From contig JACOQA010000002.1 in assembly GCA_014297435.1 (NCBI GenBank), positions 64,001 through 128,000 of the forward strand: DNA of 64,000 nucleotides, read 5' to 3'. The notes beneath the pieces are model-generated. The model had not been told where the DNA came from and ran no database searches. It saw only the letters and a program-made list of their open reading frames with translations. The DNA is from Candidatus Nanohaloarchaea archaeon. GTDB taxonomy: Archaea > Nanohalarchaeota > Nanosalinia > Nanosalinales > Nanosalinaceae. The position numbers were made by a program, and so were the translations under genes. Below are positions 8,434 through 23,281 of this stretch, in pieces; position 1 is the stretch's first letter; every line of letters begins with the position of its first letter.

Positions 8434-8462
8434 AAGAGTTGAGTTGTAAAGGTGGAACATAG

Positions 8463-9343: not shown

Positions 9344-10366
9344 ATGGACACCGAGGAGCGCAAACAACTGGTCCTGAGAAATACTACCGAAATCGTTACA
9401 GAAGAAGAACTTGACGAAGTTCTGGAAAAAGATAGTCCAACCACTTATGTAGGCTATGAGACCTCGGGTCCTGTACACCTCGGACACTGGGCATCCATAA
9501 GAAAACTGAACGATCTTCAAAAGGCAGGTTTCGACCTCAAAGTTCTCTTCGCAGATCTTCACACATACTTGAACAAGAAAGGCGAGGAGGAGTGGATCCA
9601 GACCATGACTGAGTACTGGGAAGCCACGTTCAAGGCCACAGGGCTTGACGCAGAGTTCGTCCGTGGCAGAGAGTTCCAGGAAGAGACAGAATACTTCCAT
9701 GACGTCCTCGAAATGTCGAAAGAAACCACGATTAACAGAGGGCAGCGTTCGATGGCGGAAGTTGCTTCAGGCGAAGAAGACAGCCAAAGCATTTCACAGA
9801 TCGTTTACCCGTTGATGCAAGCACTGGATATCGAATATCTTGATGTCGATCTATCTATGGGTGCGACCGATCAGAGAAAGATCCACATGCTAGCCAGGGA
9901 AGCACTGCCAAAAGTCGGTTACGACAAGCCGGCATGCCTGCACCACCCGCTGGTCGTGTCTCTACAGGGAACCGAGAAGATGAGTAGCTCTAAGCCAGGC
10001 ACCATGTTCCCTCTACATGCCTCCGAGGAAACAGTGAAGGAAAGGATCAAGGACGCCTACTGTCCTCAAGGCGAAATCGAGGACAACCCGGTAATCCAGA
10101 TCACACAGTTCCATATCTTCGGCGACGACGAAGAACTTGAGATAGAAAGACCGGAAGAGTACGGCGGAAACATCCACTACTCGAACCAGGAAGAGCTTGA
10201 GGAAGACTTCGAATCCGGCGAACTACACCCACAGGACCTGAAAAACTCGGTTGCCGACCACATCGCCGAGAAACTGGAACCGGTAAGGCAGAAGTTCAAA
10301 GATAATCCAGAGCTTCTGGACTGTCTGGAGGAGATCGGGCACGAGAAGCCGGATTACGTCAAATAG
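9344..10366 (+). CDS. tyrS: Tyrosine--tRNA ligase (archaeal type)
   Basis: YVGYETSGPVHLGH (HIGH), YPLMQALD, DQRKIHMLARE, KMSSS. Confidence 0.96.
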   Translation: MDTEERKQLVLRNTTEIVTEEELDEVLEKDSPTTYVGYETSGPVHLGHWASIRKLNDLQKAGFDLKVLFADLHTYLNKKGEEEWIQTMTEYWEATFKATGLDAEFVRGREFQEETEYFHDVLEMSKETTINRGQRSMAEVASGEEDSQSISQIVYPLMQALDIEYLDVDLSMGATDQRKIHMLAREALPKVGYDKPACLHHPLVVSLQGTEKMSSSKPGTMFPLHASEETVKERIKDAYCPQGEIEDNPVIQITQFHIFGDDEELEIERPEEYGGNIHYSNQEELEEDFESGELHPQDLKNSVADHIAEKLEPVRQKFKDNPELLDCLEEIGHEKPDYVK

Positions 10367-11016: not shown

Positions 11017-11140
11017 ATGTAGTTATTTAAATCGAATACTTATAAATGTTACTGTGTAGTAGTTACACTTTTTTGTTGGATTTAGGGACCCATCAACATT
11101 AACTTAACTTCTAAAACTAGAATCTATACGTGATCCACGA

Positions 11141-11173
11141 ATGAAGGGTGGACGTTTTTCCAACAAAAGGTAG
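11141..11173 (+). CDS. Candidate micro-ORF MKGGRFSNKR (GG-leader family copy C)
   Basis: ATG AAG GGT GGA CGT TTT; shares AAGGGTGGACGTTTT with copy A; degenerate TATA TTCTAAAA ends 24 nt upstream. Confidence 0.4.
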   Translation: MKGGRFSNKR

Positions 11174-11226
11174 AATCGAAGCTGTAAAACCTGTTCTAGA
11201 AAAAGCTTTCTTCACAAGTGGTCTGT

Positions 11227-12495
11227 ATGCTTGATATCGAACTTTTCCGAAACAATCCCGAGAAGATTAAGGAGTCGGAGAAACGCCGCGACAAAGAACC
11301 TTCAAAGGTAGATAAGGTTGTAAAGACCGATGAGGAATGGCGTGAAAAGCTCCAGGAACTCGATAAGTTAAGACAGGAAAGAAATACTGTAGGCGATGAA
11401 ATAGCTTCGCTTAAACAAGAGGGTGAGGAAGCTTCCGAGAAGATCGAAAGAATGCAGGAAGTGAAAGAGAAGATATCTGAATTGGAGGAAGAAGTTGAAG
11501 ATCTCAAAGAGGAAAGAGATGAACTTCGTTACGAAATCGGTAATATCCTCCATGAATCCGTTCCTAAAGGCATGGATGAAGAAGATAACGTAGAGGAGAG
11601 AACTTGGGAGCCTGAGAATGGGAAGGACGAGGATTCCAGACTGGCAGCCGATATTATCGAAGAAAACGATTTAGTTGAGACAGAGAAGGCTGCAGAACTG
11701 GCAGGAGAAAGAGCTTACTACCTGAAAAAAGACTTGTTCCGCTTGAACCAGGCCTTGATCCAGTTCTCGATGGACCTTTTGAGCGAGAAAGGTTTCACAC
11801 CGATGCAGACACCTTACATGCTAAAGCACGAGCCTATGGCGGCAGCAGCCGAGCTCGAGGACTTTGAAGAACAGCTATACAAGATAGAAGATGAGGACAA
11901 GTACCTTATCGCTACTTCCGAACAGACCTTGGCTACTTTCCATAAGGACGATATCCTGCTTCCTGACGAGTTTCCGAAAAAGTACGCAGGATTTTCAACC
12001 AACTTCAGGCAGGAAGCCGGCAAACACGGACAACAAACCAGAGGCATCTGGAGAGTCCACCAATTCGAGAAAGTGGAGCAGTACATCTTCTGCAAACCCG
12101 AAAATTCGTGGGAGCTCCACGAGGAACTGCTTGATAACGCGGAAGAAGTTATGCAGGAGCTTGGACTTCCTTACCGCGTTGTGAACGTCTGTACTGGCGA
12201 TATGAATGATAATGCCGCGAAGAAGTACGATATCGAGGTCTGGAGACCTCCAATCGGCGAGTACGGAGAGGTCGTCTCGTGCTCTAACTGTACCGACTTC
12301 CAAGCCAGAAAAGTAAACGTCAGGATTCGCGGAAGCGATGAAAATCATGTAGCACATACATTAAACGCTACAGCAGTCGCAACCTCAAGGATCATGACAG
12401 CAATTATAGAGAACAATCAGGAAGAGGAAGGAGTAAGAATTCCTGAACCGCTCCAAAACTACATGGGCGGACAAAAGTACATAGAGACAGTTTAG
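11227..12495 (+). CDS. serS: Serine--tRNA ligase
   Basis: N-terminal coiled-coil arm, YLIATSEQ, FRQEAG, GIWRVHQFEKVEQ, EVVSCSNCTDFQAR, HTLNAT. Confidence 0.97.
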   Translation: MLDIELFRNNPEKIKESEKRRDKEPSKVDKVVKTDEEWREKLQELDKLRQERNTVGDEIASLKQEGEEASEKIERMQEVKEKISELEEEVEDLKEERDELRYEIGNILHESVPKGMDEEDNVEERTWEPENGKDEDSRLAADIIEENDLVETEKAAELAGERAYYLKKDLFRLNQALIQFSMDLLSEKGFTPMQTPYMLKHEPMAAAAELEDFEEQLYKIEDEDKYLIATSEQTLATFHKDDILLPDEFPKKYAGFSTNFRQEAGKHGQQTRGIWRVHQFEKVEQYIFCKPENSWELHEELLDNAEEVMQELGLPYRVVNVCTGDMNDNAAKKYDIEVWRPPIGEYGEVVSCSNCTDFQARKVNVRIRGSDENHVAHTLNATAVATSRIMTAIIENNQEEEGVRIPEPLQNYMGGQKYIETV

Positions 12496-12779
12496 GCGCT
12501 GTGGGAGATTTCTCCGACCTTGCAATCCTCCTCTATCTTTTCTCCACCACAGCTTTCGTTTTCCGGAGCCGAAAGCAAAGCCATCAACTGAGTGTCCCTC
12601 AAACCTTTACCAGAGGAATTTTCTAGAGCATTCATAACGTCTTCTCTAAGATCCATCTCTTCATAATGTTCTGTATAGAAATCCTTCATCCCTTCTAGTT
12701 CTCTTCCGGTGTATTGACCTGTTTGACTTAGCTTCTGACTGAAAACATCGTAGGTCTCTATCTCGAAGTATTGGGACAT
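12492..12779 (-). CDS. Hypothetical protein
   Basis: 95-aa acidic ORF with a TATA-like element upstream (about 12807-12812). Confidence 0.6.
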   Translation of the reverse strand: MSQYFEIETYDVFSQKLSQTGQYTGRELEGMKDFYTEHYEEMDLREDVMNALENSSGKGLRDTQLMALLSAPENESCGGEKIEEDCKVGEISHSA

Positions 12780-12821
12780 GCTAACGTACCTGCTTCAATC
12801 TGAAGATTTATAAGAGATTGA

Positions 12822-13112
12822 CTAGTTTCCATCGCCGAACTCCCCCAGAGGGATCTCTGATGAGCCAAGATAATCAAAGGAATGTTCGTAATTCAGACCT
12901 CCATCAGCGACAGTTTCCTGATTTTCCTCTTCAAGCATCTCTGACTGGAAACCGTCCATCCCAAGCTGCTCGATATAATCCGGATCTTCGATTCCATAAG
13001 CTTCATCGCCCTCAACCATCAAATCGTCCTCTTTACTGGATTCGATATAGCCTTCAGGGTCTTGAACGATTGGAACTTCCGGATCTCTTCCTATCCTAGG
13101 ACAGTAATCCAT
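12822..13112 (-). CDS. Hypothetical acidic protein with a TVADGG motif, downstream of leader A
   Basis: 96 aa; its ATG overlaps the stop of the His/Thr micro-ORF (TAATG). Confidence 0.7.
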   Translation of the reverse strand: MDYCPRIGRDPEVPIVQDPEGYIESSKEDDLMVEGDEAYGIEDPDYIEQLGMDGFQSEMLEEENQETVADGGLNYEHSFDYLGSSEIPLGEFGDGN

Positions 13113-13186
13113 TATAAACCCTCTCCAGATGTTTTTTCAGGTTTTGCGATGCGGCACCGTATTGTTGTGTGGTTGTGTGTTGTCAT
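13112..13186 (-). CDS. Candidate His/Thr-rich micro-ORF MTTHNHTTIRCRIAKPEKTSGEGL
   Basis: Translated by hand; stop overlaps the next start; similar to 22884-22964. Confidence 0.55.
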   Translation of the reverse strand: MTTHNHTTIRCRIAKPEKTSGEGL

Positions 13187-13298
13187 ATCGAGTAGAACCT
13201 CGAAAAGAGAATTATTGGTTTAATGCAGCACTGCCACATTCACTGCGGCAGCGGAGAACATTTTAATTGAATGTTTAATTGAGGAGATCTGAGAAAAC

Positions 13299-13355
13299 TT
13301 AGAGCAGAAGCTTCCGGGACTCAAGCACAAAACGTCCACCCTTGATTCCGCTCAT
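13299..13355 (-). CDS. Candidate leaderless micro-ORF MSGIKGGRFVLESRKLLL (GG-leader copy A)
   Basis: TATATAA (13380-13386) ends 24 nt before the ATG; in-frame AAG GGT GGA CGT. Confidence 0.55.
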   Translation of the reverse strand: MSGIKGGRFVLESRKLLL

Positions 13356-13400
13356 ATCCTAACAAAGTTCAGAAGACAGTTATATAGTTTAGGACGGTTT

Positions 13401-14606
13401 CTACCAGACCATCAGTGAGTGCTCATCCCTTACAAGATCCTCATCCCATTTTTCAGGAACATTTTCAGGAACAAGTTTCCTGAGCTCCTCTTGATTCACT
13501 TCACCCAGAAGTCTTTTTCGCTCCTCTTTCATCTGTCCGGGTCTGTTTCTTATTGCGTCACGATCAGGCTCACCGTCAAAGCTTCCTCTAACGGCGTTAC
13601 CCAGTATGTGCGCCATGTCGTTGACGTCCTCGCCATTGATCCTCATGTCGTTATCGGAGTAAAGGATGAACTCGAGATCCGGATTAAATACGTATCTCCC
13701 GTCCCCGTCTGCCTCAACTAGGTATTCAGGAGCGCTCCTATCAATATGACCGAGCAAGCCAAGTCCATTGAGGGTTGCGGCGTGGCGACCCCACATCTCC
13801 GCGTCGTTCTTAGAGATACCCATACTATCAACAGGCTCTGACCATGAGTGAAGTATTCCAACATCAAGGTTCGATTTTTCATAACCTCTGTTTCTCGTTT
13901 TCGGTTCTTTGCTGTCTACCCATAATTGTTCAGGTCTTGTGAGACGTGTGAGTCCAGGATGTATTTGTCCTAATTCATCGTGTACGCCTTCGTCTCTATC
14001 GAGTGCTGTTCTCAGTCCTACTTCCTGTATCCAGCCTTGTTCTCCGTTTTCTATTTGACCGTTAGTGACGTCGTAGTTTCCTTCACCGAATACCTGTTGA
14101 AGGTTGGAAAGATCGCCGGCGTCTAGAGAGCTTCGGGTTATAAGGTCAGTATCATATGATCGGGCGACGCGTATTCCTATGTACTCATTGTCATCCGAAA
14201 CTGCGTATGCTGCACTTGGAGGCTGCTTTATTCCTTCAGGATCGAAATCTTCTCTAAAGAATATTTCAAACTCTTCATCCGGACCTTCTTCTGGCTCCAC
14301 CGCCAGTTTGACATCTAGCTCGTCTCTTTTTTCGTTGTATTCCTCCCAGAGCTGTTTCTGGTCTGGTTTCATCCGGGTACCTGTATTAGTGTTTCGCCCC
14401 ATGCTTCCTGAAGCCATGTATGAATTGCCCGAACGACCGCCATCGGATAGATCCTCTACAAGTTCATAAACAGGCTCGTGGACTATATCGAACATGTCTA
14501 GGACTGACTGCGGTTCGTCATCCACGTACACTTGGATGTCCTCAATGCGGCTTATATCGTAAGAATTCACTTCCCCCTCCCCGTCATAGCTACTGGCGAG
14601 TGACAC
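13401..14606 (-). CDS. Orphan protein with an N-terminal Pol-beta-like nucleotidyltransferase motif and a C-terminal kinase-like motif
   Basis: SGSMGRNT...ELDV...DTDL, and WGRHAATL..LGLLGHID...NPDLE; ORF is solid, function is inferred. Confidence 0.5.
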   Translation of the reverse strand: MSLASSYDGEGEVNSYDISRIEDIQVYVDDEPQSVLDMFDIVHEPVYELVEDLSDGGRSGNSYMASGSMGRNTNTGTRMKPDQKQLWEEYNEKRDELDVKLAVEPEEGPDEEFEIFFREDFDPEGIKQPPSAAYAVSDDNEYIGIRVARSYDTDLITRSSLDAGDLSNLQQVFGEGNYDVTNGQIENGEQGWIQEVGLRTALDRDEGVHDELGQIHPGLTRLTRPEQLWVDSKEPKTRNRGYEKSNLDVGILHSWSEPVDSMGISKNDAEMWGRHAATLNGLGLLGHIDRSAPEYLVEADGDGRYVFNPDLEFILYSDNDMRINGEDVNDMAHILGNAVRGSFDGEPDRDAIRNRPGQMKEERKRLLGEVNQEELRKLVPENVPEKWDEDLVRDEHSLMVW

Positions 14607-14665
14607 TTATATCACTTCCGGCATCTTCAGTATGGATTTCCAAAGACCTGATAGAAGACTGCGAG

Positions 14666-14710
14666 TTAACCTTGCAGAAAGCATCCACCTTTTATTGTGG
14701 TGTAGCGCAT
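14666..14710 (-). CDS. Candidate leaderless micro-ORF MRYTTIKGGCFLQG (GG-leader copy D)
   Basis: TTTTATAAA (14735-14743) ends 24 nt before the ATG; in-frame AAA GGT GGA. Confidence 0.5.
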   Translation of the reverse strand: MRYTTIKGGCFLQG

Positions 14711-14808
14711 ACTTTATAGCGTTCAAACTCAGAATTTATAAAAGGACGTGGAGTCAGCGCCTCTAAAACCAGTATGGATTTAAGTGAGTTCATGTCTCAT
14801 GGAAGGGT

Positions 14809-16857
14809 ATGGAAACAACGGTCATGGTCGGGGAGAAGCCCAAAGTCGCCTCCCGGATCGCCAACGCCCTCGGAAACTACGACACCAAGACCAACCGAGG
14901 GGTCAAGAACTACGTAATCAAGACAGATGAGAGAAAGATAATCATAGCACCTGCCGTAGGCCACATATTCAACCTCGACCAGATCGCCGACAACTGGGAC
15001 TACCCTGTATTCGACGTAGAATGGAAGCCAACATTCGAAACTTCCGACTCGGCCGACTACATGAAGAAATACTACAACAACCTGAAAGACCAGCTGGAAA
15101 AGGCTGACACCTACATCAACGCGTGCGACTTCGACCTTGAAGGCTCTGTTATCGGATACAACGTTATCAAACACTTGACTGGTGCCGATGAAGAAAGAAT
15201 CGAACGCATGAAGTTCTCGACACTGACTCCTTCCGACCTACAGGAAGCATTTGATAACCTGGAGGATTTTGACGCCGGAATGACAGAAGCCGGAATAACA
15301 AGACACATTCTCGACTACTACTACGGTATCAACGTTTCCCGTGCACTGATGAAAGCGGTTAGAGATAACGACCGTTACAAGACTCTTTCTACAGGACGTG
15401 TGCAGGGTCCGACACTTAAGATCTTGGCGGACAGAGAAAAAGAAATACAGGAGTTTGAACCGGATCCTTACTGGGAGCTTTACCTAAAACATGCGGAGTT
15501 TGACGCTCAGTGGGAGGAAGACGAGGACAGGATCTGGGACCAAGAAACAGCGAACGACAAGTTCAACAAGGTATACGGAGAAACCGAAGCAGAAGTCACA
15601 AACGTGAAGGTAAACAACTATACGCACAAGCCACCGATACCTTTCAACCTGACAGGACTACAGAGCGAGGCCTCATCACAGTTCCGTATAAGCCCAAAGA
15701 AGACGCAGTCGATCGCGCAAACACTTTACGAAAACGGGCTTATCTCTTATCCTAGAACCGAGTCACAGAAACTGCCGCCGAAGATCGGATACAAGAACAT
15801 ACTGAACAAGCTGAAGGGTCAGGAAAGCTACGATAATCTGGCGAAAAAAGTACTGAAAAAAGATAAAAACGACAACCTTTACACGACGCAGGGAAGTAAA
15901 GAAGACGACGCACACCCTGCAATCTATCCAACAGGAGAAAGCCCGGGCGGAAAACTGTCAAAACAGGAGAAAAAAGTCTATGATTTAATTGTAAAACGTT
16001 TCTTCGCCGTATTCGGCAAACCAGCCAAACGTCAATCCCTTACCTTCACTCTCGACGTTAAGGAAGAAGAGTTCAAGGCCAAGTCAAAGGTTACAAAGAA
16101 GAGGAACTGGTACGAGCTCTACGATCCATACGTTAAAGTGGATTCGGCCGATCTCCCGGACATGGAGGAAGGCCAGACACTCCAGGTAGAAGACTTCGAA
16201 CTTGTTGACAAAGAAACGCAGCCACCTAACCGTTACAGCCAGTCAAAGATTGTCAACGAGCTTGAGAAACGAGAACTAGGTACAAAAGCGACACGTGCCG
16301 ACACCGTAGACCGCCTTTACGACAGGAACTACATCGAAGAGGAGCCTATCGAAGTAACGGACCTGGGACTTGCGATCGTAAACACTCTAGAGGACTACTG
16401 TGGCAACATCGTCTCCGAAGAGCTTACACGCGAATTCGAGGAAAAGATGCAGGAAATAAGAGAGCAGAAAAACACGAAAGAAGAAGTTCTGGAAGAGGCA
16501 AGAAACGAGTTAGGAGATATACTCGAAAAGTTCAAGGAGAAACAGAAACAGATTGGTTCAGAGCTTGTCGACACAATCGACTCCGAAAGAGAACGCAGAA
16601 GAAGACTAGGTCCATGCGATATCGAGGATTGTGACGGCACCCTAAAAATAATCAAGGCAAACGGCTCAAAATTCGTAGGATGCTCAAACTACCCTGACTG
16701 CGAAAACACATACCCATTACCGAACAACGGAGATATAAAGTCGACAAACGAGGTCTGCGAGGAATGCGGAACACCTAAGATCTTCGTAAGCAGGAAGAAA
16801 GGAAAAGACTACACGATGTGCCTATTTCCGGATTGTCCTACAAAAGATTCTTGGTAG
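14809..16857 (+). CDS. topA: DNA topoisomerase I (type IA)
   Basis: TOPRIM EKP and DFDLEG, STGRVQGPTL, active-site LISYPRTES, C-terminal Cys4 zinc ribbons. Confidence 0.97.
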   Translation: METTVMVGEKPKVASRIANALGNYDTKTNRGVKNYVIKTDERKIIIAPAVGHIFNLDQIADNWDYPVFDVEWKPTFETSDSADYMKKYYNNLKDQLEKADTYINACDFDLEGSVIGYNVIKHLTGADEERIERMKFSTLTPSDLQEAFDNLEDFDAGMTEAGITRHILDYYYGINVSRALMKAVRDNDRYKTLSTGRVQGPTLKILADREKEIQEFEPDPYWELYLKHAEFDAQWEEDEDRIWDQETANDKFNKVYGETEAEVTNVKVNNYTHKPPIPFNLTGLQSEASSQFRISPKKTQSIAQTLYENGLISYPRTESQKLPPKIGYKNILNKLKGQESYDNLAKKVLKKDKNDNLYTTQGSKEDDAHPAIYPTGESPGGKLSKQEKKVYDLIVKRFFAVFGKPAKRQSLTFTLDVKEEEFKAKSKVTKKRNWYELYDPYVKVDSADLPDMEEGQTLQVEDFELVDKETQPPNRYSQSKIVNELEKRELGTKATRADTVDRLYDRNYIEEEPIEVTDLGLAIVNTLEDYCGNIVSEELTREFEEKMQEIREQKNTKEEVLEEARNELGDILEKFKEKQKQIGSELVDTIDSERERRRRLGPCDIEDCDGTLKIIKANGSKFVGCSNYPDCENTYPLPNNGDIKSTNEVCEECGTPKIFVSRKKGKDYTMCLFPDCPTKDSW

Positions 16858-16861
16858 CGGC

Positions 16862-18347
16862 TTAAATAATCTTGTAACGCTCCTCTAGATTCCTAATCTC
16901 CTCTTTGCTATGCTTGGAAAACTTTGGTTCGTATCTGTAGAAAGTTGAGAAAAAACGGACTAAGGTCCAGTTCTTGGAGCAATATCTGTCTTCATTCCGC
17001 CCGATTTCGGTTTTAAAAACATTTTCAATCTCTGAGGCTACGCTCTCATTCTTCTTTCTTATTCTAAGTTCGTTTCCTGTACACAGTATATTTGAGGCGA
17101 TACCATCTAATCTTGAGTTAGGTTTTAATGGCAATCTAATTTCAGAATTTTCGTTACCTCTAACCCCTACTTTGTATCTGAGTTGGTTTTCTCCCATTAG
17201 CCGATGTGTTTCCGCCTTTCCGAAAAGTTCAACAATTTTCGAAACCGGTGCTGCATACTTATCTTCCTCCCAAGTGTAGACCTGATGTCTGGATATCTCT
17301 AAGTTTGAGGCTATCTGACGCTGATAAAGCCCTCTTTCTTCTCTCAAGCCCTGATATTATCGCCTAAACCTTCACCCTAAGATCCTCTACCTGATGAGGT
17401 CAAAGAAGTCTTTGAAGAAGTTTGACTTCTTTCTACCTCGATAAACGTAAGTTCGGGAACCTTTTTCCAGCTTCCTTATCATTTCTTTTTTCTTACGCGG
17501 ATGAGAGAACCCCCACATTATTACAGAAATTTCCGAAGTCCCTAGGACTGAACCTCAGAAGATAGGACCCAGGTTTCCGGATCTCACCTTCGATATTGAT
17601 TCCTTGCATATCGTTCTGACATGTTTCAAGAAAAGACCTAGTAGCTGAAGAGAGCGAAACTCTATAACTCTCCTGAGGCATACACCCATCCGTGTCAAAT
17701 ACTCCTCTCCAGTAGGCGTTAGATAGGTCTCCAGAGTCAAAAATTTCTGGGCGAGATAGTTCTCCTTTCTTGTAGGATTTAGGTAGGTTGAAACAGTGTC
17801 GGATGTATCGGCAGAACCATTTGTTAGCTATTTTAAGTTCGATTTTATTGCCTCTCTCGAGTATGCAGCATGTGCTTTCTGGTAAACCGAAGAGTTTCTG
17901 AACTAGTTCCTAGAGTTTCTCGATAAATTTTCTTGAGTCTTCGAGTTCTTCCGGCTTTCCTCCATCTACTACGCTCCATATGTTAGGTCCGTTGAATCCG
18001 CCATCTCCTGCTGCTACGCCTGCAAAGTATGCAAATTTCTCGGTTTTGAGATCCGAGTTTTTTCTTGGCGGATCGAGTTTTGAGGAGTTTCGTGAGCTGG
18101 TTATGTATTCTATTTCTTGGGACATCGTTTTTTCGTTGATGAGTTCTGAGAGGATGTCCATAGACCATGTCTGTTTTTCTTTACATCTTTGCATGGTCTG
18201 AGAAGTAATATTATGTTCTTCTGGATCTAAAATGTTGTATATTTCCTTGTTTCTTTCTTTGCCTATCTTAGCGTAGGGTATAGACTTTCGGCTTTCTTCT
18301 TTGCCGTTAATAAGGGCTTTAGACAAGTTGATGATTTCCTCTGGCAT
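16862..18347 (-). pseudogene. Disrupted two-motif LAGLIDADG endonuclease-like gene with a downstream HTH segment
   Basis: FAYFAGVAAGDGG, in-frame TAG at 17910-17912, then YWRGVFDTDG in the same frame, frameshifts near 17510 and 17370, then HTH-like GLYQRQIASNLEISRHQVYTWE. Confidence 0.7.
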
Positions 18348-18434
18348 GTAGATTTATTACTGGGCTTCTTTTGAAAAGTGGAGCGGACGGAGTTCCGTTA
18401 GTTCCGGTAGAAAAAGAACAAAAACAGTTATTTA

Positions 18435-18731
18435 TCATTTAGATGACTGTTCGCCATCGTGAAGTTTTTCTCTTTCTAGGTCGATTGCGGTATCGATCAA
18501 GAGACGTCCTAGCTGCCTTCCTCTTTCCCGGGACATGCCTTTTTCTTCGAACCTGTCCGCGAACTGCTCCATGACCTGTTCCTCCCGATTCTCATCCTTT
18601 ATCTCTATATCGTTTTTCTCTTTATACTCGATGACTTTGAGGACTTCTTCCATCCTGTCATCAATTTTCTCAACTATCTCATCGTTTATACTGTCGATGT
18701 TGCCGCGGGCATCTTCCAGAGGATTCGCCAT
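18435..18731 (-). CDS. Chorismate mutase (AroQ type)
   Basis: LEDARGNIDSINDEIV...R...IEYK...DENREEQV; last gene of the Phe/Tyr operon. Confidence 0.88.
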   Translation of the reverse strand: MANPLEDARGNIDSINDEIVEKIDDRMEEVLKVIEYKEKNDIEIKDENREEQVMEQFADRFEEKGMSRERGRQLGRLLIDTAIDLEREKLHDGEQSSK

Positions 18732-18757
18732 AATAGGTTATGATTGAACGGTCTTTT

Positions 18758-19615
18758 TTACTTACGGACTTCATCGCTCAAATGCTCTATTACCAGATCT
18801 GTTCTTTCCTGCGCATCTTCAAGATCGAACTCTTCGCCCAACTCCTCAAACTTTTCTGCGAAAGCCTCTTCATCCCCTATTATTTCCTGTATCTCCTCAG
18901 CGGACTCCTTGAATCGTTCACGTACTTTTTCGTTCTCAGGGTTTTCGGCCTGTATAGAGCCGTAAAGTCCGGACTTCTGATTCAGCATTCTTGCTGTAAG
19001 ATCGGTAATTAACTGGTAGACCGGAGAAGAATATTCTGACATCTCCGAACCCGACATATCTGACTTCCTGATGGTTTCGGAAACCACGAGCTCTGAGAAA
19101 TGCATCAATCCCTGTACAAGACTCATCGCCTTATCATGCGACTCAGCATCTGTGACATGTATATGTGCGTCTTTCCGGTTCCAGAACTCTTCCATAGCCG
19201 TCCATTTCTTCCCTTCAATCGGAGTTAAGACAATTTTCTGACCTTCAACCGAGTTCGAAGGGGCATACATCGGATGCATCCCCAGAACTTCATCAGAATA
19301 CTGTTTCATAGCCTCTGTCGGCTTCTTCTTAACGCTTGTAATATCGCAGAACAAGGTATCGTCCGAAATATGTGAACCGATCTCTTCAATAACATCAACA
19401 GTTACAGCGATAGGAACTGCCACGATTACGACATCCGCATCTTTTACTATCTCGGTGTTTTCTCCAAAATCCCATCCATGTTTATTTGCCACTTCTTCGG
19501 CCTCTTCAAGACTTTCACCGGAGATAGTTATCTCGTTGTGTTCTTCGAGAAGTTTTCCTAGGTGTTGGCCGAACTGACCGGTTCCGCCGACAATAACGAT
19601 TTTTTCGTCTATCAT
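18758..19615 (-). CDS. tyrA: Prephenate dehydrogenase
   Basis: Rossmann IVGGTGQFG, DITSVK, GMHPMYAP, HDKAMSLVQGLMH. Confidence 0.92.
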   Translation of the reverse strand: MIDEKIVIVGGTGQFGQHLGKLLEEHNEITISGESLEEAEEVANKHGWDFGENTEIVKDADVVIVAVPIAVTVDVIEEIGSHISDDTLFCDITSVKKKPTEAMKQYSDEVLGMHPMYAPSNSVEGQKIVLTPIEGKKWTAMEEFWNRKDAHIHVTDAESHDKAMSLVQGLMHFSELVVSETIRKSDMSGSEMSEYSSPVYQLITDLTARMLNQKSGLYGSIQAENPENEKVRERFKESAEEIQEIIGDEEAFAEKFEELGEEFDLEDAQERTDLVIEHLSDEVRK

Positions 19616-20724
19616 AGTTCCTCCTCCAGGATGTCGAACGCTTTGTTGATTTCTTCTTTAGTTGTTGAGCCGAAACATATTCTGACATTTTGATCGCTTT
19701 CCGGACCCATAGGTTCGCCAGGAACCATCGCAACACCTTCCTCGATCATATCAAGACAGAAATCCCAGGAATCCTCTTTAACCTCGGGAAATGCATAGAT
19801 CGCTCCTTCAGGCATCTGAAAATCCCATCCTAGCTCGTTCATTCTTTCGACAAGCAGGTCTCTTCTTTCCTCGTAAACCTGCCTCATCTCTTCAACGTGT
19901 GAATCATTTTCCAGTGCTTCAAGCGCTGCAATCTGCGAGGGTTTTGGCGGACAGGCAGTTGCTCCTCTCGCGACTTTCGCAAAGTTCTCTATATCATCTT
20001 CTCTTCCTACCACCCAGCCTATTCTCCAGCCAGTCATCGCATGATTCTTCGAAACTGAACCGATCACTACAGAGTTTTCACAGTATGCTGCAGGCGAATA
20101 ATGAGTCTTTCCATAATTCAGGCGATGGTATACCTCATCGGAAAGAAGCATGACGTCATTTTCTTCACAGAACTTTCCGATGTTCTTCGCTTGTTTTTCT
20201 GTTAGCATTCTTCCTGTCGGGTTTGAAGGCGTGTTAACCACGACAAGCTCTGCATCTTTCATTTCCTGCTTTGCTTCGTCTCTAAGTTCTTCGCCATCAA
20301 AGTACTCTACTTGTGTCCACTGATTGCCGTTAACCTCACTCATCAATTTGTACGGACCCCAGCAAGGATCGTTAAATACAGCTTCTTTGTTCGAGTCAAG
20401 CATTGCCGCAAAAACAGAGTAAATCGCTCCCATTCCGCCTGTAGCAACCATAACGTTTTCTTTAGAAAGCTCGGCGTTTTTCGGACCAGTTTTTTGCTTT
20501 AATCCTTCTTCCTCAACAATGGCTTTTCTCAATTTTTCAATACCTGTTACTGATGTATATCCCTGTTTCTGTTCGACTATTCCGTCTGCTGCAGCCTTTT
20601 TAACATGTTCAGGCGTGTCAAAGCTTGGCTGACCGATATCAAATCGGACACATTTATCTTGTTCTCTTGCTTTTTCCGAAATCTTTCTGATCGAAAGCTC
20701 TATGTTTTCAATTCTTTCACGCAT
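19612..20724 (-). CDS. Class I/II PLP-dependent (aromatic/aspartate) aminotransferase
   Basis: GQPSFDTP, NTPSNPTG, SDEVY, SVSKNHAMTGWRIG. Confidence 0.92.
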   Translation of the reverse strand: MRERIENIELSIRKISEKAREQDKCVRFDIGQPSFDTPEHVKKAAADGIVEQKQGYTSVTGIEKLRKAIVEEEGLKQKTGPKNAELSKENVMVATGGMGAIYSVFAAMLDSNKEAVFNDPCWGPYKLMSEVNGNQWTQVEYFDGEELRDEAKQEMKDAELVVVNTPSNPTGRMLTEKQAKNIGKFCEENDVMLLSDEVYHRLNYGKTHYSPAAYCENSVVIGSVSKNHAMTGWRIGWVVGREDDIENFAKVARGATACPPKPSQIAALEALENDSHVEEMRQVYEERRDLLVERMNELGWDFQMPEGAIYAFPEVKEDSWDFCLDMIEEGVAMVPGEPMGPESDQNVRICFGSTTKEEINKAFDILEEEL

Positions 20725-21493
20725 CTTTACCACCGAATGATCCAAGGACTTTAACCTCGGCGTAAGTTTCCAGACATTTTTTCGTGTTCTCGAATTTCTC
20801 AGAGTTCTGGTCGGCCTCCGCCTCTATGTAGAAAAAGTAGTTTCCAAGACCATCTTTAGTCGGCCGAGACTGGATGTACGCCAAGTTAATTCCGTGTCCA
20901 GAAAAACATGAAAGCATCGACCCTAGAAGACCCGGACGATCCTCACCCGGCTCCACTATCATCGATGTCTTACTGCCTTCACTTTGTTTACCGTTTAAGA
21001 TGAAGAACCTGGTAGTGTTTGACTCACGATCCTGTACGCTTTCCTCCAGAATGTTTAGATCGTTTAGTTGTGCTGCAAGCTTGGAGCAGATCGCGGCTTC
21101 ACCTTCTTCTATTTCCTCAGCGGCTTTGGCAGTGCTTGAAGACTCTTTTTTCTCCCAGCCATTTTCTCCAATTATCTTTTTTGACTGTGTCAGTGCTTGT
21201 GGATGAGACCGAACTTTCTCGACATCGTTAATGTTTCCTTCTTTTGAGGCTAGTACGTGATCGATCTCGACCTTTACCTGTCCTGTAACCTCAACATCTC
21301 TTTCTCTCAACAAGTCGATCGATTCTGTTACTCCACCTCCAAGAGAGTTTTCGAACGGTATTACTGCTGCCTTGGCATCTGATTCAACCGCCTCTGTTAT
21401 AGTGGAGACCGGAACCGGTTCATAGTTGGAGAAGTATTTTTCTGCAGCTTGATGGGTGTATGTGCCTTCAGGTCCTAGGAACGCTACTTTCAT
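20717..21493 (-). CDS. pheA: Prephenate dehydratase with ACT domain
   Basis: VAFLGPEGTYT, PFENSLGG, SHPQAL, NTTRF, IQSRP. Confidence 0.94.
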   Translation of the reverse strand: MKVAFLGPEGTYTHQAAEKYFSNYEPVPVSTITEAVESDAKAAVIPFENSLGGGVTESIDLLRERDVEVTGQVKVEIDHVLASKEGNINDVEKVRSHPQALTQSKKIIGENGWEKKESSSTAKAAEEIEEGEAAICSKLAAQLNDLNILEESVQDRESNTTRFFILNGKQSEGSKTSMIVEPGEDRPGLLGSMLSCFSGHGINLAYIQSRPTKDGLGNYFFYIEAEADQNSEKFENTKKCLETYAEVKVLGSFGGKDA

Positions 21494-21759
21494 TACATAT
21501 CCTCTTCCTGTAAATCAACAGCAGTATCTATCAGTAGTTCAGCGAGTTCCCGACCTTTTTCTCGAGGTAGGTCTTCTTTTTCGAAAAGCTTCTCGAACTG
21601 ATCCTTAACAACTTCCTCTCTGCCTTCATCCTTGATTTCCATGCCGTTCTGTTTCTTGTATTCGCCGATCTCCTCGACAACGTTCATCCTGCGGGAAACT
21701 GCGTCAACGATCTCGGTATTAACCCTGTCAATCTCCTTCCGGTAATCCTCAAGATCCAT
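21493..21759 (-). CDS. Chorismate mutase (AroQ type), second copy
   Basis: LEDYRKEIDRVNTEIV...RR...IGEYK...DEGREEVV; similar to 18435-18731. Confidence 0.88.
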   Translation of the reverse strand: MDLEDYRKEIDRVNTEIVDAVSRRMNVVEEIGEYKKQNGMEIKDEGREEVVKDQFEKLFEKEDLPREKGRELAELLIDTAVDLQEEDM

Positions 21760-21800
21760 GTCTTTGATTCACCTTCGAAGCGTTTTATAAATGGCGGAGG

Positions 21801-22382
21801 TTATGGGGTGTTGAAATGCCCCATGTAGGGAGTATCCTCCGTATCAACATCTTCCATCTCTCTGTGACGAGTTCCATCATAAGTCGGAAAACCGCCATCA
21901 GTAACGACTGCTTTCTCCGATTCTTCAGTAACTTGGATCTCCCACGACGATTTCTCGCCATATTCTTTCCCCAGTTCCTGTCGGGTTTCGAACACCGTGT
22001 CTCGAACCTCAGAACGTTCACCGGCAATAACTACCTCATCGTCGAACTCGAAAACTTCAACATTCTCAGGTGCAGCTTTTTCGGCTTCATCCTTGCCGCT
22101 TTCAAATGTTCGTTGATACTCGAAACCGTTCTGGAAAACTTTTGGAAATGCTTCACGGAAACCTTCGATTCCTGCACCCTGGTCATAAACTTCTATGGAG
22201 TCGTCATAGTCGACTACTTTTATCCTGCCGTGATCGCTGTTGACATGTATATCTCTTCCGTTGGCGTCCCCTGGATAGTTCCAGGACCGGGCGGTTTCTA
22301 CAATCTCTTCCTCGTAACTTTCAGGCACCTCAACTTCTGTCCCGACATGGGTTGGCGAAAAGTCGAATCTTTTTGCAGCCAT
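21801..22382 (-). CDS. Hypothetical acidic protein with a VVTDGG motif
   Basis: 193 aa; coupled to the upstream ORF by a TAATG overlap. Confidence 0.75.
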   Translation of the reverse strand: MAAKRFDFSPTHVGTEVEVPESYEEEIVETARSWNYPGDANGRDIHVNSDHGRIKVVDYDDSIEVYDQGAGIEGFREAFPKVFQNGFEYQRTFESGKDEAEKAAPENVEVFEFDDEVVIAGERSEVRDTVFETRQELGKEYGEKSSWEIQVTEESEKAVVTDGGFPTYDGTRHREMEDVDTEDTPYMGHFNTP

Positions 22383-22879
22383 TATTCCATCACCGGGAAG
22401 CCGTCGTAGCTGTCAAAGGTGTTCGGTCTGTAGGTTTCTCCGTGGAACCAGCGTTCGATCTGTTTTGCCTGCTGAGGGTTCATATTACTGCCGATAACAT
22501 CATCAAGAAACTCATTTGTCTGATCGTAAACTTCATCAACAGCTGATTCGATCTCCATCATCTCATCCCTGTTAAAGGCGTACTCCTGAGAGATAGCCTC
22601 ACTACTTCCTTCAACGAATCTTTCTCCCGGGACTTCTAATGTGTCGAAGAACTCGCCATATTTTTGAGAGGGTTCTACATCTTCCTCCGGTTCGGCCAAT
22701 TTTTCCCACCAGATCTGACCTGAAGGATCTACATCATACACAGGATCTTCTCCTCCGTCCGTAACGGTTCTGTCGACTCTGCCGTTTACGGTTTCGAGCT
22801 CTCCTTCAGCTGTTTCCTTGAAGGTCATATGTGGAGCCTCTACTCTTTCCTTGATGCTGGAATCGCCTCCAGTATACAT
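22382..22879 (-). CDS. Hypothetical acidic protein with a TVTDGG motif, downstream of leader B
   Basis: 165 aa; ATG lies 4 nt after the His/Thr micro-ORF stop. Confidence 0.75.
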   Translation of the reverse strand: MYTGGDSSIKERVEAPHMTFKETAEGELETVNGRVDRTVTDGGEDPVYDVDPSGQIWWEKLAEPEEDVEPSQKYGEFFDTLEVPGERFVEGSSEAISQEYAFNRDEMMEIESAVDEVYDQTNEFLDDVIGSNMNPQQAKQIERWFHGETYRPNTFDSYDGFPVME

Positions 22880-22883
22880 GCTC

Positions 22884-22964
22884 TCAATACCTCTCTGGTT
22901 TTTCTGAATTAGTTTTGGGTTTTTCTCTCATGCCGTGTGTTGTGTGGTGTGTGTTGTGTGTCAT
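22884..22964 (-). CDS. Candidate His/Thr-rich micro-ORF MTHNTHHTTHGMREKPKTNSEKPERY
   Basis: Translated by hand; 4 His and 4 Thr in codons 2-10; similar to 13112-13186. Confidence 0.55.
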   Translation of the reverse strand: MTHNTHHTTHGMREKPKTNSEKPERY

Positions 22965-23145
22965 GATTGTATCACGAATACGAAATGGCGTTTTCTACGG
23001 TTTTACCGTGAGAAAAGCCTTTTTTGGAATTTACAGCAGAATCAGTAGCAGCAGAAGTAGCAGTAAAATTGAAGATAATACGAAGTCAGTAGAAACCGAA
23101 ATTTTAGTTGAGAAGATCCGTGAGAAAGCTGGGGCTCGACCCGTC

Positions 23146-23187
23146 TTAAAGTTGCAGAACCCGTCCACCCTGAGTTGCGGACATCAT
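23146..23187 (-). CDS. Candidate leaderless micro-ORF MMSATQGGRVLQL (GG-leader copy B)
   Basis: TTTATAAA (23212-23219) ends 24 nt before the ATG; in-frame CAG GGT GGA CGG. Confidence 0.55.
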   Translation of the reverse strand: MMSATQGGRVLQL

Positions 23188-23281
23188 CGTAACTATGAAT
23201 AGACAACAGAATTTATAAACAATTTGCCGCACACACCCAGGCTAAGCCAGCTATTTATTATTTGAACTGGACATACAGTTC

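Follow-up and report, generated by a model that had tools for sequence, protein, structure and literature searches.

Site C, in a 64,000-nt stretch of a Candidatus Nanohaloarchaea archaeon contig (JACOQA010000002.1, positions 64,001 to 128,000; hereafter the window), is a micro-ORF, MKGGRFSNKR (11141..11173, +), that lies just upstream of the seryl-tRNA synthetase gene (11227..12495, +). The synthetase was identified by Pfam Seryl_tRNA_N plus tRNA-synt_2b, its ATG at 11227 gives the usual MLDIELFR N-terminus, and it is the inferred target of site C. The micro-ORF is preceded by a weak, degenerate A/T-rich box TTCTAAAAC (11109..11117, +), 23 nt before the ATG, whose promoter function is inferred from spacing only. 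Within the micro-ORF we found a putative shift cassette (11147..11161, +) made of a Shine-Dalgarno (SD)-like GGTGGA (11147-11152), the spacer CGT, TTT in the predicted P site (11156-11158) and TCC, a Ser codon cognate to the downstream SerRS, in the predicted A site (11159-11161). The +1 frame from this point is an open bridging ORF (11160..11234, +; PTKGRIEAVKPVLEKAFFTSGLYA), whose TGA (11232-11234) overlaps codons 2-3 of SerRS.

Three related micro-ORFs lie on the reverse strand, each with a TATA-like box exactly 24 nt before its ATG. Site A (13299..13355, -; MSGIKGGRFVLESRKLLL), with a TATATAA box at 13380..13386, is Val-type, with GGTGGA at 13335-13340, P-site TTT at 13329-13331 and A-site GTG at 13326-13328, and an ortholog in a same-genus genome (L117) has the same layout. 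Its +1-frame ORF of 35 codons (13220..13327, -) ends in a Val/Ala-rich tail (..FSAAAVNVAVLH), contains a predicted 10-bp hairpin at 13229-13253 that is also predicted in ortholog L117, and stops at the BRE/TATA-like box of the next unit. In V-type +1 ORFs, Val is enriched in the last 15 residues (0.14 against 0.07). A second, CA-rich small ORF, MTTHNHTTIRCRIAKPEKTSGEGL (13112..13186, -), follows, and its stop overlaps (TAATG) the start of a 96-aa orphan (12822-13112).

Site D (14666..14710, -; MRYTTIKGGCFLQG), with a TTTATAAA box at 14735..14742, is Leu-type, with GGTGGA at 14684-14689, P-site TTT at 14678-14680 and A-site CTG at 14675-14677. Its +1-frame ORF of 28 codons (14590..14676, -) ends in a TAG (14590-14592) that lies 14 nt after the GTG at 14606 and 19 nt before the GTG at 14570, the two candidate starts of a 401-aa orphan (13401-14606). 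The Atlas record of this protein starts at residue 13, which is the GTG at 14570, and no family was found for the protein.

Site B (23146..23187, -; MMSATQGGRVLQL), with a TTTATAAA box at 23212..23219, is a Leu-type variant, with GGTGGA at 23164-23169, P-site GTT at 23158-23160 and A-site CTG at 23155-23157. The same GGTGGA-YGS-GTT-CTG-C cassette is the second sensor of tandem Ile+Leu or Val+Leu leaders in relatives (L019, L034, L056, L102, L104 and L108). Its +1-frame ORF of 41 codons (23031..23156, -) ends in a run of Leu codons (..SSILLLLLLLLILL), and a second small ORF, MTHNTHHTTHGMREKPKTNSEKPERY (22884..22964, -), ends 4 nt before a 165-aa orphan. The downstream operon (18435..22879, -) encodes, by Pfam, the 165-aa and 193-aa orphans, chorismate mutase, prephenate dehydratase, a class I/II aminotransferase, prephenate dehydrogenase and a second chorismate mutase. 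Orthologs of these genes follow Ile-type leaders in relatives L019, L038 and L064.

The initial annotation of these four micro-ORFs as a family sharing an in-frame (K/Q)-G-G motif, including the strings shared between sites, is thus confirmed. However, its statement that A, B and D head orphan genes is only partly so, since B heads two orphans followed by the aromatic amino-acid genes, and it missed that C heads SerRS. Also, the Gly codons, which it held never to vary, are not invariant in relatives, where GGTGGC, GGCGGA, GGTGAA, GGTGCC, CGTGGT and GGTGTC occur.

To determine whether the motif exceeds chance, we searched this genome for GGTGGA-YGY-TTT and found 12 occurrences, against 0 for the reversed-pattern control. 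In total, the genome has 14 such leaders, and the strict motif occurs in 57 of 70 genomes of the phylum. We then ran the frame test that had been proposed beforehand, and found that, of 132 distinct strict-motif hits in this genome plus 35 relatives, 120 have an ATG within 48 nt upstream in codon phase 0 with no stop between, against 3 and 2 in the other phases. For all 41 intergenic GGTGGA of this genome, the figures are 15, 3 and 1. In addition, an A+T peak at -35 to -24 precedes the leader ATGs, as it does ordinary gene starts (98 leaders and 227 genes). Hence, the family is far more than chance and much larger than the four sites.

To determine what distinguishes the copies, we compared the codon after TTT with the downstream gene. 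In all 70 strict hits with an aminoacyl-tRNA synthetase (aaRS) gene starting less than 400 nt downstream, this codon encodes the amino acid of that enzyme (Ser 15, Thr 18, Gly 14, Tyr 8, Val 7, Cys 4, Lys 2, Trp 1 and Phe 1); the two Lys cases are class II LysRS by NCBIfam (605 bits). Label shuffles gave a mean of 12.6 and a maximum of 24 matches in 10,000. Since the genomes are related, counts over hits overstate independence; counting each of the 9 enzyme families once, the chance product of amino-acid frequencies is 8e-14. The variants in this genome fit too, with GGCE-R before ArgRS and GGYD-H before the HisRS operon.

To test the rule in samples chosen independently of the motif, we examined synthetase loci directly. 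Of 25 nanohaloarchaeal ThrRS loci, 19 have the leader with a Thr codon in the A site and P-site TTT (14), CCC (4) or CCT (1). Of 27 SerRS loci, 16 are canonical and 5 are variants that keep a Ser codon there. In contrast, in one family (f3) the micro-ORF before SerRS, M(T/Q)GF(S/C/Y)RQS, has a variable codon after TTT, and the bridging frame is -1, not +1.

These results bear on the view that the elements co-regulate lineage-specific genes through a common (K/Q)GG peptide, which is not supported: each copy carries its own specifier codon two codons after GG, and the commonest targets are the cognate synthetase genes. Although K/Q-G-G-R/C-F recurs in most copies, the peptide is not conserved where the nucleotide logic is (GGRF, GGCF, RGRP, GGYF, GERF, GAHF and VGVRF), everything after the specifier is unconserved, lengths vary from 8 to 42 residues, and the one position that co-varies with context is the specifier. 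This argues against a specific arrest peptide, and a functional signal or toxin-like peptide with a KGGRF motif is likewise very unlikely.

Similarly, we considered whether GGTGGAYGYTTT is a DNA- or RNA-level protein-binding site, which the initial annotation had allowed, or a promoter-proximal element (an operator or an initially transcribed signal), with the ORFs incidental. In favor of this, the hexamer is nearly invariant at synonymous positions within this genome, Arg and Cys alternate through a C/T change, and one extra copy without an ATG exists (C1:272246 of this genome). However, the codon next to the motif changes with the downstream enzyme in 70 of 70 cases, the distance to the promoter varies by whole codons only (6 to 45 nt, always a multiple of 3), and the downstream +1 frame carries coding-type constraints. 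Hence, we regard this reading as very unlikely.

To determine how the leaders are linked to their targets, we compared the stop of each frame with the aaRS start. The +1-frame stop minus the aaRS start is exactly +1 (ATGA) in 23 of 70 leaders and within -16 to +20 nt in 67 of 70, compared to 0 of 70 for frame 0 (all 38-300 nt upstream) and 6 of 69 for the -1 frame. The +1 ORFs of aaRS-linked leaders hold 62 cognate residues against 167.6 expected (0 of 10,000 shuffles as low), whereas those of the other leaders hold 113 against 71.7 (0 of 10,000 as high), with Ile, Val, Leu and Trp runs near the end. For A, B and the Ile-type leaders, the +1 ORF stops 37 to about 150 nt before the next gene, and the ArgRS (+1 stop 48 nt upstream) and HisRS-operon leaders also lack the overlap. 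Each aaRS gene also has its own BRE/TATA-like box about 23 nt before its ATG, inside the +1 ORF, so the enzyme can probably be made without the leader. The open +1 frame, which the initial annotation did not see, points to frameshifting rather than simple stalling.

Since the specifier logic is that of T-boxes, the targets are aaRS and amino-acid genes, and GGGUGGA resembles the conserved T-box core, we explored whether the leader RNA might instead bind uncharged tRNA directly (codon to anticodon and UGGN to the NCCA end) and switch structure without being translated. Rfam, which includes the T-box family, gave 0 matches at gathering score in the window. Also, the specifier lies 6 nt from the UGG, too close for one tRNA to touch both, and the base after UGG does not follow the amino acid: it is A for all nine types, and within Thr leaders the hexamer varies (GGTGGC, GGTGAA, GGTGCC and GGTGTC). 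This reading does not explain the in-frame ATG, the open +1 frame ending at the start codon or the amino-acid bias of that frame, and we consider it very unlikely.

To determine whether the +1 frame could be entered without frameshifting, we looked for start codons in it. Because the spacing is fixed, a GUG lies in the +1 frame inside GGUGGA in every strict hit, and in most variants, so a second uORF, started on its own and coupled to the downstream gene, cannot be excluded from sequence; the frame-0 micro-ORF would then sense the amino acid by stalling only, and stalling would modulate that second initiation or an RNA structure. Four SerRS variants even have ATG or GTG there (GGTGGA-GAT-GTT..), our ORF caller called the +1 ORF of the Trp leader as a 96-aa gene starting at that GTG, and the open +1 frame and its composition bias are explained equally well by this reading. 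However, a ribosome stalled with the specifier in its A site would cover the GUG 11 nt upstream, so scarcity would block, not raise, +1 translation, which is the wrong sign for a synthetase or a Trp-pathway gene. Neither the P-site codons UUU, CCC and CCU nor the fixed distance of the specifier is explained, and there is no SD or spacer upstream of the GUG, which follows the 5' AUG by 4-30 nt. In addition, one leader (L147, a GGCGGA variant) has no ATG, GTG or TTG anywhere in its 27-codon +1 ORF, yet that ORF ends in ATGA on the ThrRS start; it is the only counter-example. Hence, two independent uORFs remain possible but unlikely.

Our best reading, which we hold as likely but not certain, is that each element is a promoter-proximal, apparently leaderless upstream ORF that works as an amino-acid-specific sensor by programmed +1 ribosomal frameshifting at a hungry codon. 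In this view, the ribosome would start at the 5' AUG and, after 1 to 14 codons, reach a cassette of SD-like RGGUGG(A), one spacer codon (mostly CGY or UGY), a shift-prone P-site codon (UUU; in variants CCC or CCU) and the A-site specifier. If the aminoacyl-tRNA for the specifier is plentiful, decoding would go on in frame 0 and stop 3 to 15 codons later, far from the downstream gene. If it is scarce, the A site would stay empty and the peptidyl-tRNA would slip one base forward, helped by the pull of the nearby rRNA:mRNA pairing. The ribosome would then read the +1 frame, kept open and poor in the scarce amino acid, up to the start codon of the target gene, where it would terminate (typically AUGA) and reinitiate, so that the cognate synthetase is made. 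Some P-site codons are not obviously slippery, namely GUU in B and in four SerRS variants, GAA in the Arg leader of this genome and GAU in its His leader.

Under this reading, C is a Ser sensor for SerRS, whereas A (Val), B (Leu) and D (Leu) are the same cassette before orphan genes and an aromatic amino-acid operon. In A and B, the +1 ORF ends in a run of codons of the sensed amino acid and stops before the target, so the output step there may differ (perhaps attenuation-like). The specifiers of B and of its relatives (Leu, Ile, Val) do not match the aromatic pathway downstream. Tandem cassettes (Ile or Val, then Leu) lie in one frame-0 ORF, and both would shift into the same +1 ORF.

Our analysis establishes the cassette, its frame, the cognate-codon rule, the open +1 frame ending at the start codon, its composition bias, complementarity to the 16S 3' end of relatives, and conservation across the phylum and in some Halobacteria. 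By contrast, with no RNA run listed for any of these genomes, it is inferred from sequence alone that transcripts start at the AUG, that frameshifting happens and responds to tRNA charging, and that coupling is by termination-reinitiation. The interpretation in the initial annotation was therefore right in part: conserved, translated, promoter-proximal and apparently leaderless upstream ORFs that act as a sensing and control element are supported, at this inferred level, but common control of lineage-specific genes through a shared peptide is not.

We found no description of such an element in print. For the output step there is precedent, as termination-reinitiation coupling at ATGA overlaps has been shown in Haloferax volcanii (PMC6728339). 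For the shift itself, SD-stimulated frameshifting has not been reported in archaea as far as we saw, and a 2021 review speaks of a single -1 case (PMC8211752). To determine whether the GGTGGA could act as an internal SD-like site, as the initial annotation had allowed in its caveat of a nucleotide constraint, we examined the 16S 3' end of two relatives (the assembly of this genome has no 16S sequence) and found ...GGAUCACCUCCA, which fits that caveat, so RGGUGG can form 6 pairs with it, ending 4 nt before the P-site codon. GGTGGA also stands 3-6 nt before ordinary internal start codons. Pairing of GGUGG with the 16S 3' end three or four bases before the shift codon is as in bacterial RF2. In some leaders the +1 frame runs straight into an enzyme, namely a TrpD-like protein after a Trp leader (L039), ThrRS itself in a Halovenus genome (L164), and an M20 hydrolase and an aminotransferase-like ORF after Trp leaders, and this is the RF2 arrangement.

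To determine whether the four micro-ORFs (sites A to D) stand alone, we compared them with the whole genome, which is 0.999 Mb with 44% G+C (the window is C8:64001-128000; contigs of the own genome are denoted C, genomes G, loci examined L and families of the phylum f) and whose nearest named relatives are Candidatus Nanohaloarchaea, Nanosalina and Nanohalobium. The four micro-ORFs are exactly as given in the initial annotation; hence, its observation is confirmed. Sites A, B and D have a TATA box, then 24 nt and then the ATG, and site C has only a weak A/T-rich box. We found GGTGGA-YGY-TTT 12 times in this genome, almost always in intergenic DNA and preceded by a TATA-like box and an in-frame ATG. 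A relaxed scan of intergenic DNA recovered 14 leaders in all, among them variants before ArgRS and the HisRS operon, and only A to D inside the window.

To determine whether this exceeds chance, we searched related genomes and found the strict 12-mer in 33 of 41 genomes (the own one plus 40 relatives), whereas the reversed-pattern control gave 0-2 per genome. Across the phylum, 57 of the 70 genomes searched have it (family f1 46/49, f4 8/8, f3 2/10, f2 0/1 and f5 0/1), with the further genomes G046-G074 contributing counts only. The surroundings of the hits in the 41 genomes were then read, except for one hit at a contig end (G024:C19), and the four hits of G012 were analyzed separately. Among 132 distinct hits, an ATG with no stop between lies within 48 nt upstream in phase 0 in 120, against 3 and 2 in phases 1 and 2, so the frame test proposed by the initial annotation is passed overwhelmingly. 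Of the 12 hits without an in-frame ATG, about 8 look like chance hits inside genes. The distance from ATG to GGT is always a multiple of three, from 6 to 45 nt. Upstream of the ATG there is an A+T peak at -35 to -24, as before ordinary genes of this genome, which fits leaderless transcripts but does not prove them.

To determine what the leaders precede, we identified the downstream genes with Pfam and NCBIfam and found that the codon two positions after GG follows the gene. In the own genome, the micro-ORF before SerRS (site C) reads MKGGRF-S (Ser), that before ThrRS MKGGCF-T (Thr), that before GlyRS MKGGCF-G (Gly), that before ValRS ..GGRF-V (Val), that before TrpRS ..GGCF-W (Trp), that before ArgRS ..GGCE-R (Arg) and that before the HisRS operon MQGGYD-H (His). 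Among the 132 hits, 70 have a synthetase gene starting less than 400 nt downstream, and only these entered the cognate and stop-position counts; synthetase labels in relatives rest on blastx against our ORF calls of the own genome, which come from a crude ORF model, and start codons are approximate. In all 70, that codon encodes the cognate amino acid (Ser 15, Thr 18, Gly 14, Tyr 8, Val 7, Cys 4, Trp 1, Phe 1 and Lys 2). The two Lys cases first looked like mismatches because the nearest own protein is AspRS, but the gene is a class II lysine-tRNA ligase (26% identity to AspRS; NCBIfam 605 bits). Shuffling the labels gave 12.6 matches on average and never more than 24 in 10,000 trials. Since the genomes are kin, per-hit counts overstate independence, and the safer figure counts each of the nine enzyme families only once, which gives a chance product of about 8e-14. 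Cys and Tyr leaders exist in relatives although the CysRS and TyrRS of this genome have none. Hence, the rule predicts correctly outside the genome in which it was noticed, although this is comparative evidence only.

For Tyr, relatives have true Tyr-type leaders directly before TyrRS (L021, L024, L049 and others). In the window, the micro-ORF MQIEELSCKGGT (8424-8462, +) has its GGTGGA 6 nt before the ATG of gene 8463-9302, which precedes TyrRS (9344-10366); this is probably just the SD of that gene, or a relic. For Lys, a leader at C1:121275 (-) (L005) stands before endonuclease V here and in the same-genus genome (relatives L083, L095 and L118 were compared). In L095, the order is leader, class II LysRS and endonuclease V. 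The leader thus seems to have survived loss of lysS-II in this genome, which encodes a class I LysRS elsewhere.

The exchangeable specifier recalls T-boxes, and the match of the specifier codon to the regulated gene in 70 of 70 hits is a functional likeness only. A search of the whole window against Rfam gave 0 matches at gathering score, including none to the T-box covariance model (Stem I, T-box sequence and antiterminator), and ARAGORN gave 0 tRNA genes. In addition, the base after UGG does not follow the amino acid: the hexamer is the same for nine amino-acid types, yet it varies within Thr leaders (GGTGGA, GGTGGC, GGTGAA, GGTGCC and GGTGTC). An antisense tRNA-like anticodon loop was also considered and dropped, since the base after the specifier is mostly C and not the A this would need.

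To determine how the leaders might be linked to the synthetase genes, we compared the three reading frames from the specifier codon onward. Frame 0 stops after 3-15 codons, always at least 38 nt before the synthetase start. In contrast, the +1 frame stays open and stops at the start codon, with an exact ATGA overlap in 23 of 70 and a stop within -16 to +20 nt in 67 of 70; frame 0 stops within that range in 0 of 70 and the -1 frame in 6 of 69. A -1 frameshift was dropped because the -1-frame stops are scattered. In one locus (L013), the +1 ORF is over 100 codons long and still ends in ATGA. For site C, the +1 ORF (11160-11234) ends in a TGA that overlaps codons 2-3 of SerRS, so direct fusion of the +1 frame to SerRS was also rejected. 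The Arg and His leaders lack the stop/start overlap. Moreover, each synthetase has its own promoter-like box inside the +1 ORF, so the leader would add to a basal level rather than gate all expression.

The +1 ORFs of synthetase-linked leaders are depleted of the very amino acid they would sense, with 62 residues against 167.6 expected (0 of 10,000 shuffles as low); for Ser, the frequency is 5% against 17% in other types. This is what one expects if that frame has to be read while the amino acid is scarce. Family f3 breaks both rules: a look-alike micro-ORF before SerRS, M(T/Q)GF(S/C/Y)RQS.. (L240, L242 and L244), has a variable codon after TTT and a conserved Ser codon (TCA) three codons later, and the frame that bridges to the SerRS start is -1, not +1. 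This may be a different recoding design.

To determine whether the cassette resembles a +1 shift site, we examined the 16S rRNA. A search of the own assembly found no 16S gene, so the 16S of two relatives (G019 and G018) was used, which ends ...GGAUCACCUCCA. RGGUGG can pair with 3'-UCCACU-5' of this end over six positions, ending four bases before the P-site codon. Variants keep GGUG or GUGG, except GGCGGA in locus L147. The same hexamer stands a few bases before ordinary internal start codons. Among permutations of the hexamer in all intergenic DNA of the own genome, GGAGGT, TGGAGG, GAGGTG and GTGGAG are the commonest (55-64 against a mean of 34), which indicates real use of a GGAGGUG Shine-Dalgarno in this lineage, next to leaderless starts.

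We next used samples chosen without regard to the motif. Of 25 nanohaloarchaeal ThrRS loci, 19 have the leader; in these the hexamer and the peptide vary, but the P-site codon is TTT (14), CCC (4) or CCT (1), and the A-site codon is always Thr. Of 27 SerRS loci, 16 are canonical and five more are variants that keep a Ser codon at the A-site position; at L243 (upstream of SerRS in G024), a run of N lies exactly over the leader cassette, so this locus could not be scored. The P-site codon is not always TTT, CCC or CCT, since GTT occurs in site B and four SerRS variants, and GAA and GAT occur in the own Arg and His leaders. An SD-like element, a short spacer, a homopolymeric P-site codon and a slowly decoded A-site codon make up the layout of the RF2 frameshift site. 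Transcriptional slippage on the T-run was considered and dropped, since the runs are only 3-5 T and this would not explain the cognate codon. Similarly, a C/D-box sRNA was dropped since only B and one other copy start with a C-box-like ATGATG.

A GUG necessarily lies in the +1 frame, so a separately started second uORF is the main rival. Directly against it speaks only L147, whose +1 ORF has no start codon at all, besides the physiological sign and the slippery-codon pattern. At C9:90325-90893 (-) (L002), two Trp-type leaders lie in tandem 277 nt apart; the +1 ORF of the second is the 96-aa orphan gene of our ORF calls, which starts at the GTG inside GGTGGA, and an uncalled acidic ORF seems to fill the 296-nt gap before TrpRS. 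An SD for a downstream ATG or GTG was rejected, since there is no start at the right spacing, except at C1:272246 (-) (L007). There, a second copy of GGAGGTGGACGTTTTTCT lies 58 nt after the Ser-type leader at C1:272304, has no in-frame ATG, is followed after 11 nt by an ATG and lies inside the +1 ORF of that leader (..FLGGGRFSMHSKFN).

Beyond synthetases, Trp-type leaders are followed by several kinds of gene. They precede TrpRS (L074 and L054), or their +1 frame runs directly into a protein: a TrpD-like anthranilate phosphoribosyltransferase (L039), an M20 hydrolase and an aminotransferase-like ORF (both in G012), and several unnamed proteins. Leaders of the Ile, Val, Leu and Trp types that are not next to a synthetase have +1 ORFs ending in runs of the sensed amino acid, for example ..SIISIIFIIS, ..AAAVNVAVLH, ..LLLLLLLLILL and ..ISSVKNFSW. 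In these, cognate residues number 113 against 71.7 expected (0 of 10,000 shuffles as high), and Ile makes up 0.37 against 0.04 of the last 15 residues. In contrast, frame 0 has a single cognate codon. Several relatives carry two cassettes in one frame-0 ORF (Ile or Val, then Leu), and both would shift into the same +1 ORF. Single-sequence folds show a 10-bp hairpin in site A and its ortholog, and a hairpin plus U-run after the Ile leader at C1:137300. At the latter locus (L006), the strong predicted hairpin comes directly after the stop of the +1 ORF (C1:137420-137470, +) and is followed by CCUUUUCUUU; this terminator-like structure suggests an attenuation-type output for leaders not linked to a synthetase.

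Of the four sites, C would be a Ser sensor for SerRS. Site D (Leu, TTT-CTG) has a +1 ORF that ends 14 nt after one candidate start and 19 nt before the other candidate start of a 401-aa orphan. Site A (Val, TTT-GTG) has a 35-codon +1 ORF with a Val-rich tail and a hairpin, which stops at the BRE/TATA-like box of a second small ORF that overlaps the start of a 96-aa orphan. Site B (Leu, GTT-CTG) has a 41-codon +1 ORF ending in ten Leu/Ile codons, followed by a similar second small ORF, two orphans and an aromatic amino-acid operon. The two second small ORFs (13112-13186, - and 22884-22964, -) are related and rich in Thr and His over a CA-rich tract (MTTHNHTTIRC.. and MTHNTHHTTHG..). Each has its own BRE/TATA-like box about 24 nt upstream and ends on or 4 nt before the start of the orphan gene downstream of A and B; an ortholog exists in a same-genus genome (L117). 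They may be a second leader layer or unstructured ribosome-loading sites. Protein Atlas gave no usable function for the 401-aa (site D) and 165-aa (site B) orphans, and Pfam and NCBIfam also gave none. The operon (18435-21759, -) encodes two chorismate mutases, prephenate dehydratase, a class I/II aminotransferase and prephenate dehydrogenase, which is a partial Phe/Tyr pathway in a 1-Mb genome of a group usually described as lacking amino-acid biosynthesis. For A and B, the sensor part is the same, but the amino acid sensed does not obviously match the pathway, as Leu, Ile and Val sensors precede an aromatic-pathway operon, and any route from the signal to the genes would be conjecture.

The system is general in families f1 and f4 of the phylum. 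To determine whether it reaches further, we examined 54 ThrRS loci from Halobacteria and found nine (L164, L174, L184, L185, L189, L191, L192, L197 and L203; free-living Halovenus species and further Halobacteriales, also free-living) that carry ATG(ATG)-GTA-GGT-GTC-CGY-TTT-ACA, a Thr-type leader (MMVGVRF-T) behind a conserved GCGCAATCTTTTTG box, with the +1 stop on the ThrRS start. In one of them, L164, the +1 frame is continuous with ThrRS. In those five genomes, only the ThrRS leader has the motif. Nanohaloarchaeal ThrRS is 62-68% identical to haloarchaeal ThrRS, so gene and leader may have moved together.

These results suggest, more likely than not, that archaea possess a functional counterpart of the bacterial T-box system that is built on recoding. 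In this view, a modular, leaderless frameshift attenuator, made of an SD-like element, a slippery codon and an exchangeable specifier codon, turns an empty ribosomal A site into a +1 frameshift, and that shift switches on the cognate synthetase, or Trp, branched-chain and other amino-acid-related genes. The cassette, its cognate codon and the open +1 frame are seen in the sequences, whereas leaderless transcription, expression, frameshifting itself and its response to charging are inferred, as a search of sequencing runs listed no RNA run for the locus and only two DNA runs with small shares. At least 11 specificities would exist across Nanohaloarchaeota (Asp, Glu, Ala, Pro, Met, Asn and Gln were not seen) and, for ThrRS, in some free-living Halobacteria. 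It would be the first regulatory +1 frameshift, the first SD-stimulated frameshift and the first tRNA-charging sensor described in archaea. A 2021 review of archaeal recoding mentions one -1 case, and we found in it no regulatory +1 case (PMC8211752); literature searches, which covered few subscription journals, found no description of this system.

How archaea match synthetase levels and amino-acid supply to tRNA charging is essentially unknown, and the bacterial solutions (T-boxes, attenuation and the stringent response) are not described there. If this reading holds, one short and easily recognized cassette explains the control of up to half of the synthetase genes in a whole phylum of host-dependent nano-archaea. 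It also marks which orphan genes respond to which amino acid, which gives a handle on what these symbionts do when the host stops feeding them. It would add sense-codon, charging-dependent +1 frameshifting to the list of natural regulatory recoding events and would show that rRNA:mRNA pairing can steer elongating archaeal ribosomes. Since the ThrRS version occurs in cultivable Halovenus species, the question is directly testable, and since the specifier is exchangeable, the cassette could also serve as a compact amino-acid biosensor for haloarchaeal genetics.

The closest known system is the autoregulatory +1 frameshift of bacterial release factor 2 (prfB). It shares a short frame-0 ORF, an internal Shine-Dalgarno-like element a few bases 5' of a shift-prone P-site codon and an A-site codon whose slow decoding reports the level of the regulated factor. 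RF2, antizyme and the ermC leader are described as cases in which frameshifting is both sensor and effector (PMC5009743). Here, however, the hungry codon is a sense codon, the sensed quantity would be aminoacyl-tRNA, the host is an archaeon and the mRNA is apparently leaderless. In addition, the +1 ORF mostly ends on the start codon of the product rather than encoding it, with true fusions in only a few (L164 ThrRS, L039 TrpD-like and two G012 Trp leaders).

T-box riboswitches of Gram-positive bacteria likewise place one modular leader with an exchangeable specifier codon before aaRS, biosynthesis and other amino-acid genes and read out tRNA charging for one amino acid. Here, the codon appears to be read by a translating ribosome and not by a free tRNA on a folded RNA, and there is no Stem I, T-box or antiterminator architecture; T-boxes are not known in archaea. 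In leader-peptide attenuation (trpL, ilvL, leuL, hisL, and pheM before the pheST synthetase operon), translation speed of a short upstream ORF at cognate codons sets downstream expression, and the +1 ORFs of the Ile, Val, Leu and Trp types end in runs like ilvL or leuL. However, the aaRS-linked leaders have a single cognate codon at a fixed place and avoid that amino acid afterwards, no alternative hairpins were established, and entry into the run-bearing frame needs a frame change. Nascent-peptide arrest uORFs (SecM, TnaC or ErmCL kind) require a conserved peptide, whereas the peptide here varies (GGRF, GGCF, RGRP, GGYF, GERF, GAHF and VGVRF) while the nucleotide cassette and the specifier persist. 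The initial annotation, which read the elements as uORF-based control by an arrest or sensing peptide or an RNA site read during translation, is supported in part.

In the ermC leader ORF, ribosomes that change frame translate on into the spacer and thereby allow expression of the downstream gene (PMC5009743). There, the trigger is a ketolide antibiotic, the effect is unfolding of an mRNA structure and the organism is a bacterium; here, the trigger would be an empty A site at a specific codon and the output a stop/start overlap. Hungry-codon and rare-tRNA +1 frameshifting (yeast Ty1 and antizyme) also involves P-site slippage while the A site waits and frameshift efficiency used as a sensor (for antizyme, PMC5009743), but those sense a fixed rare tRNA or polyamines, yield a fusion protein and are not a family with exchangeable specificity. 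Leaderless polycysteine short ORFs at the head of mycobacterial operons are Cys-responsive attenuators that sense one amino acid through translation (bioRxiv 10.1101/834739), but they are bacterial and use runs of Cys codons, and we found no frameshift, SD-like element or synthetase targets described for them. Regulatory +1 frameshifting is already known, and the present system would work like RF2 autoregulation in mechanism, like T-boxes and leader-peptide attenuation in purpose and like the drug-induced ermC leader frameshift in output. It differs from RF2 in using sense codons and, mostly, stop/start coupling, which has been shown for ATGA overlaps in Haloferax (PMC6728339).
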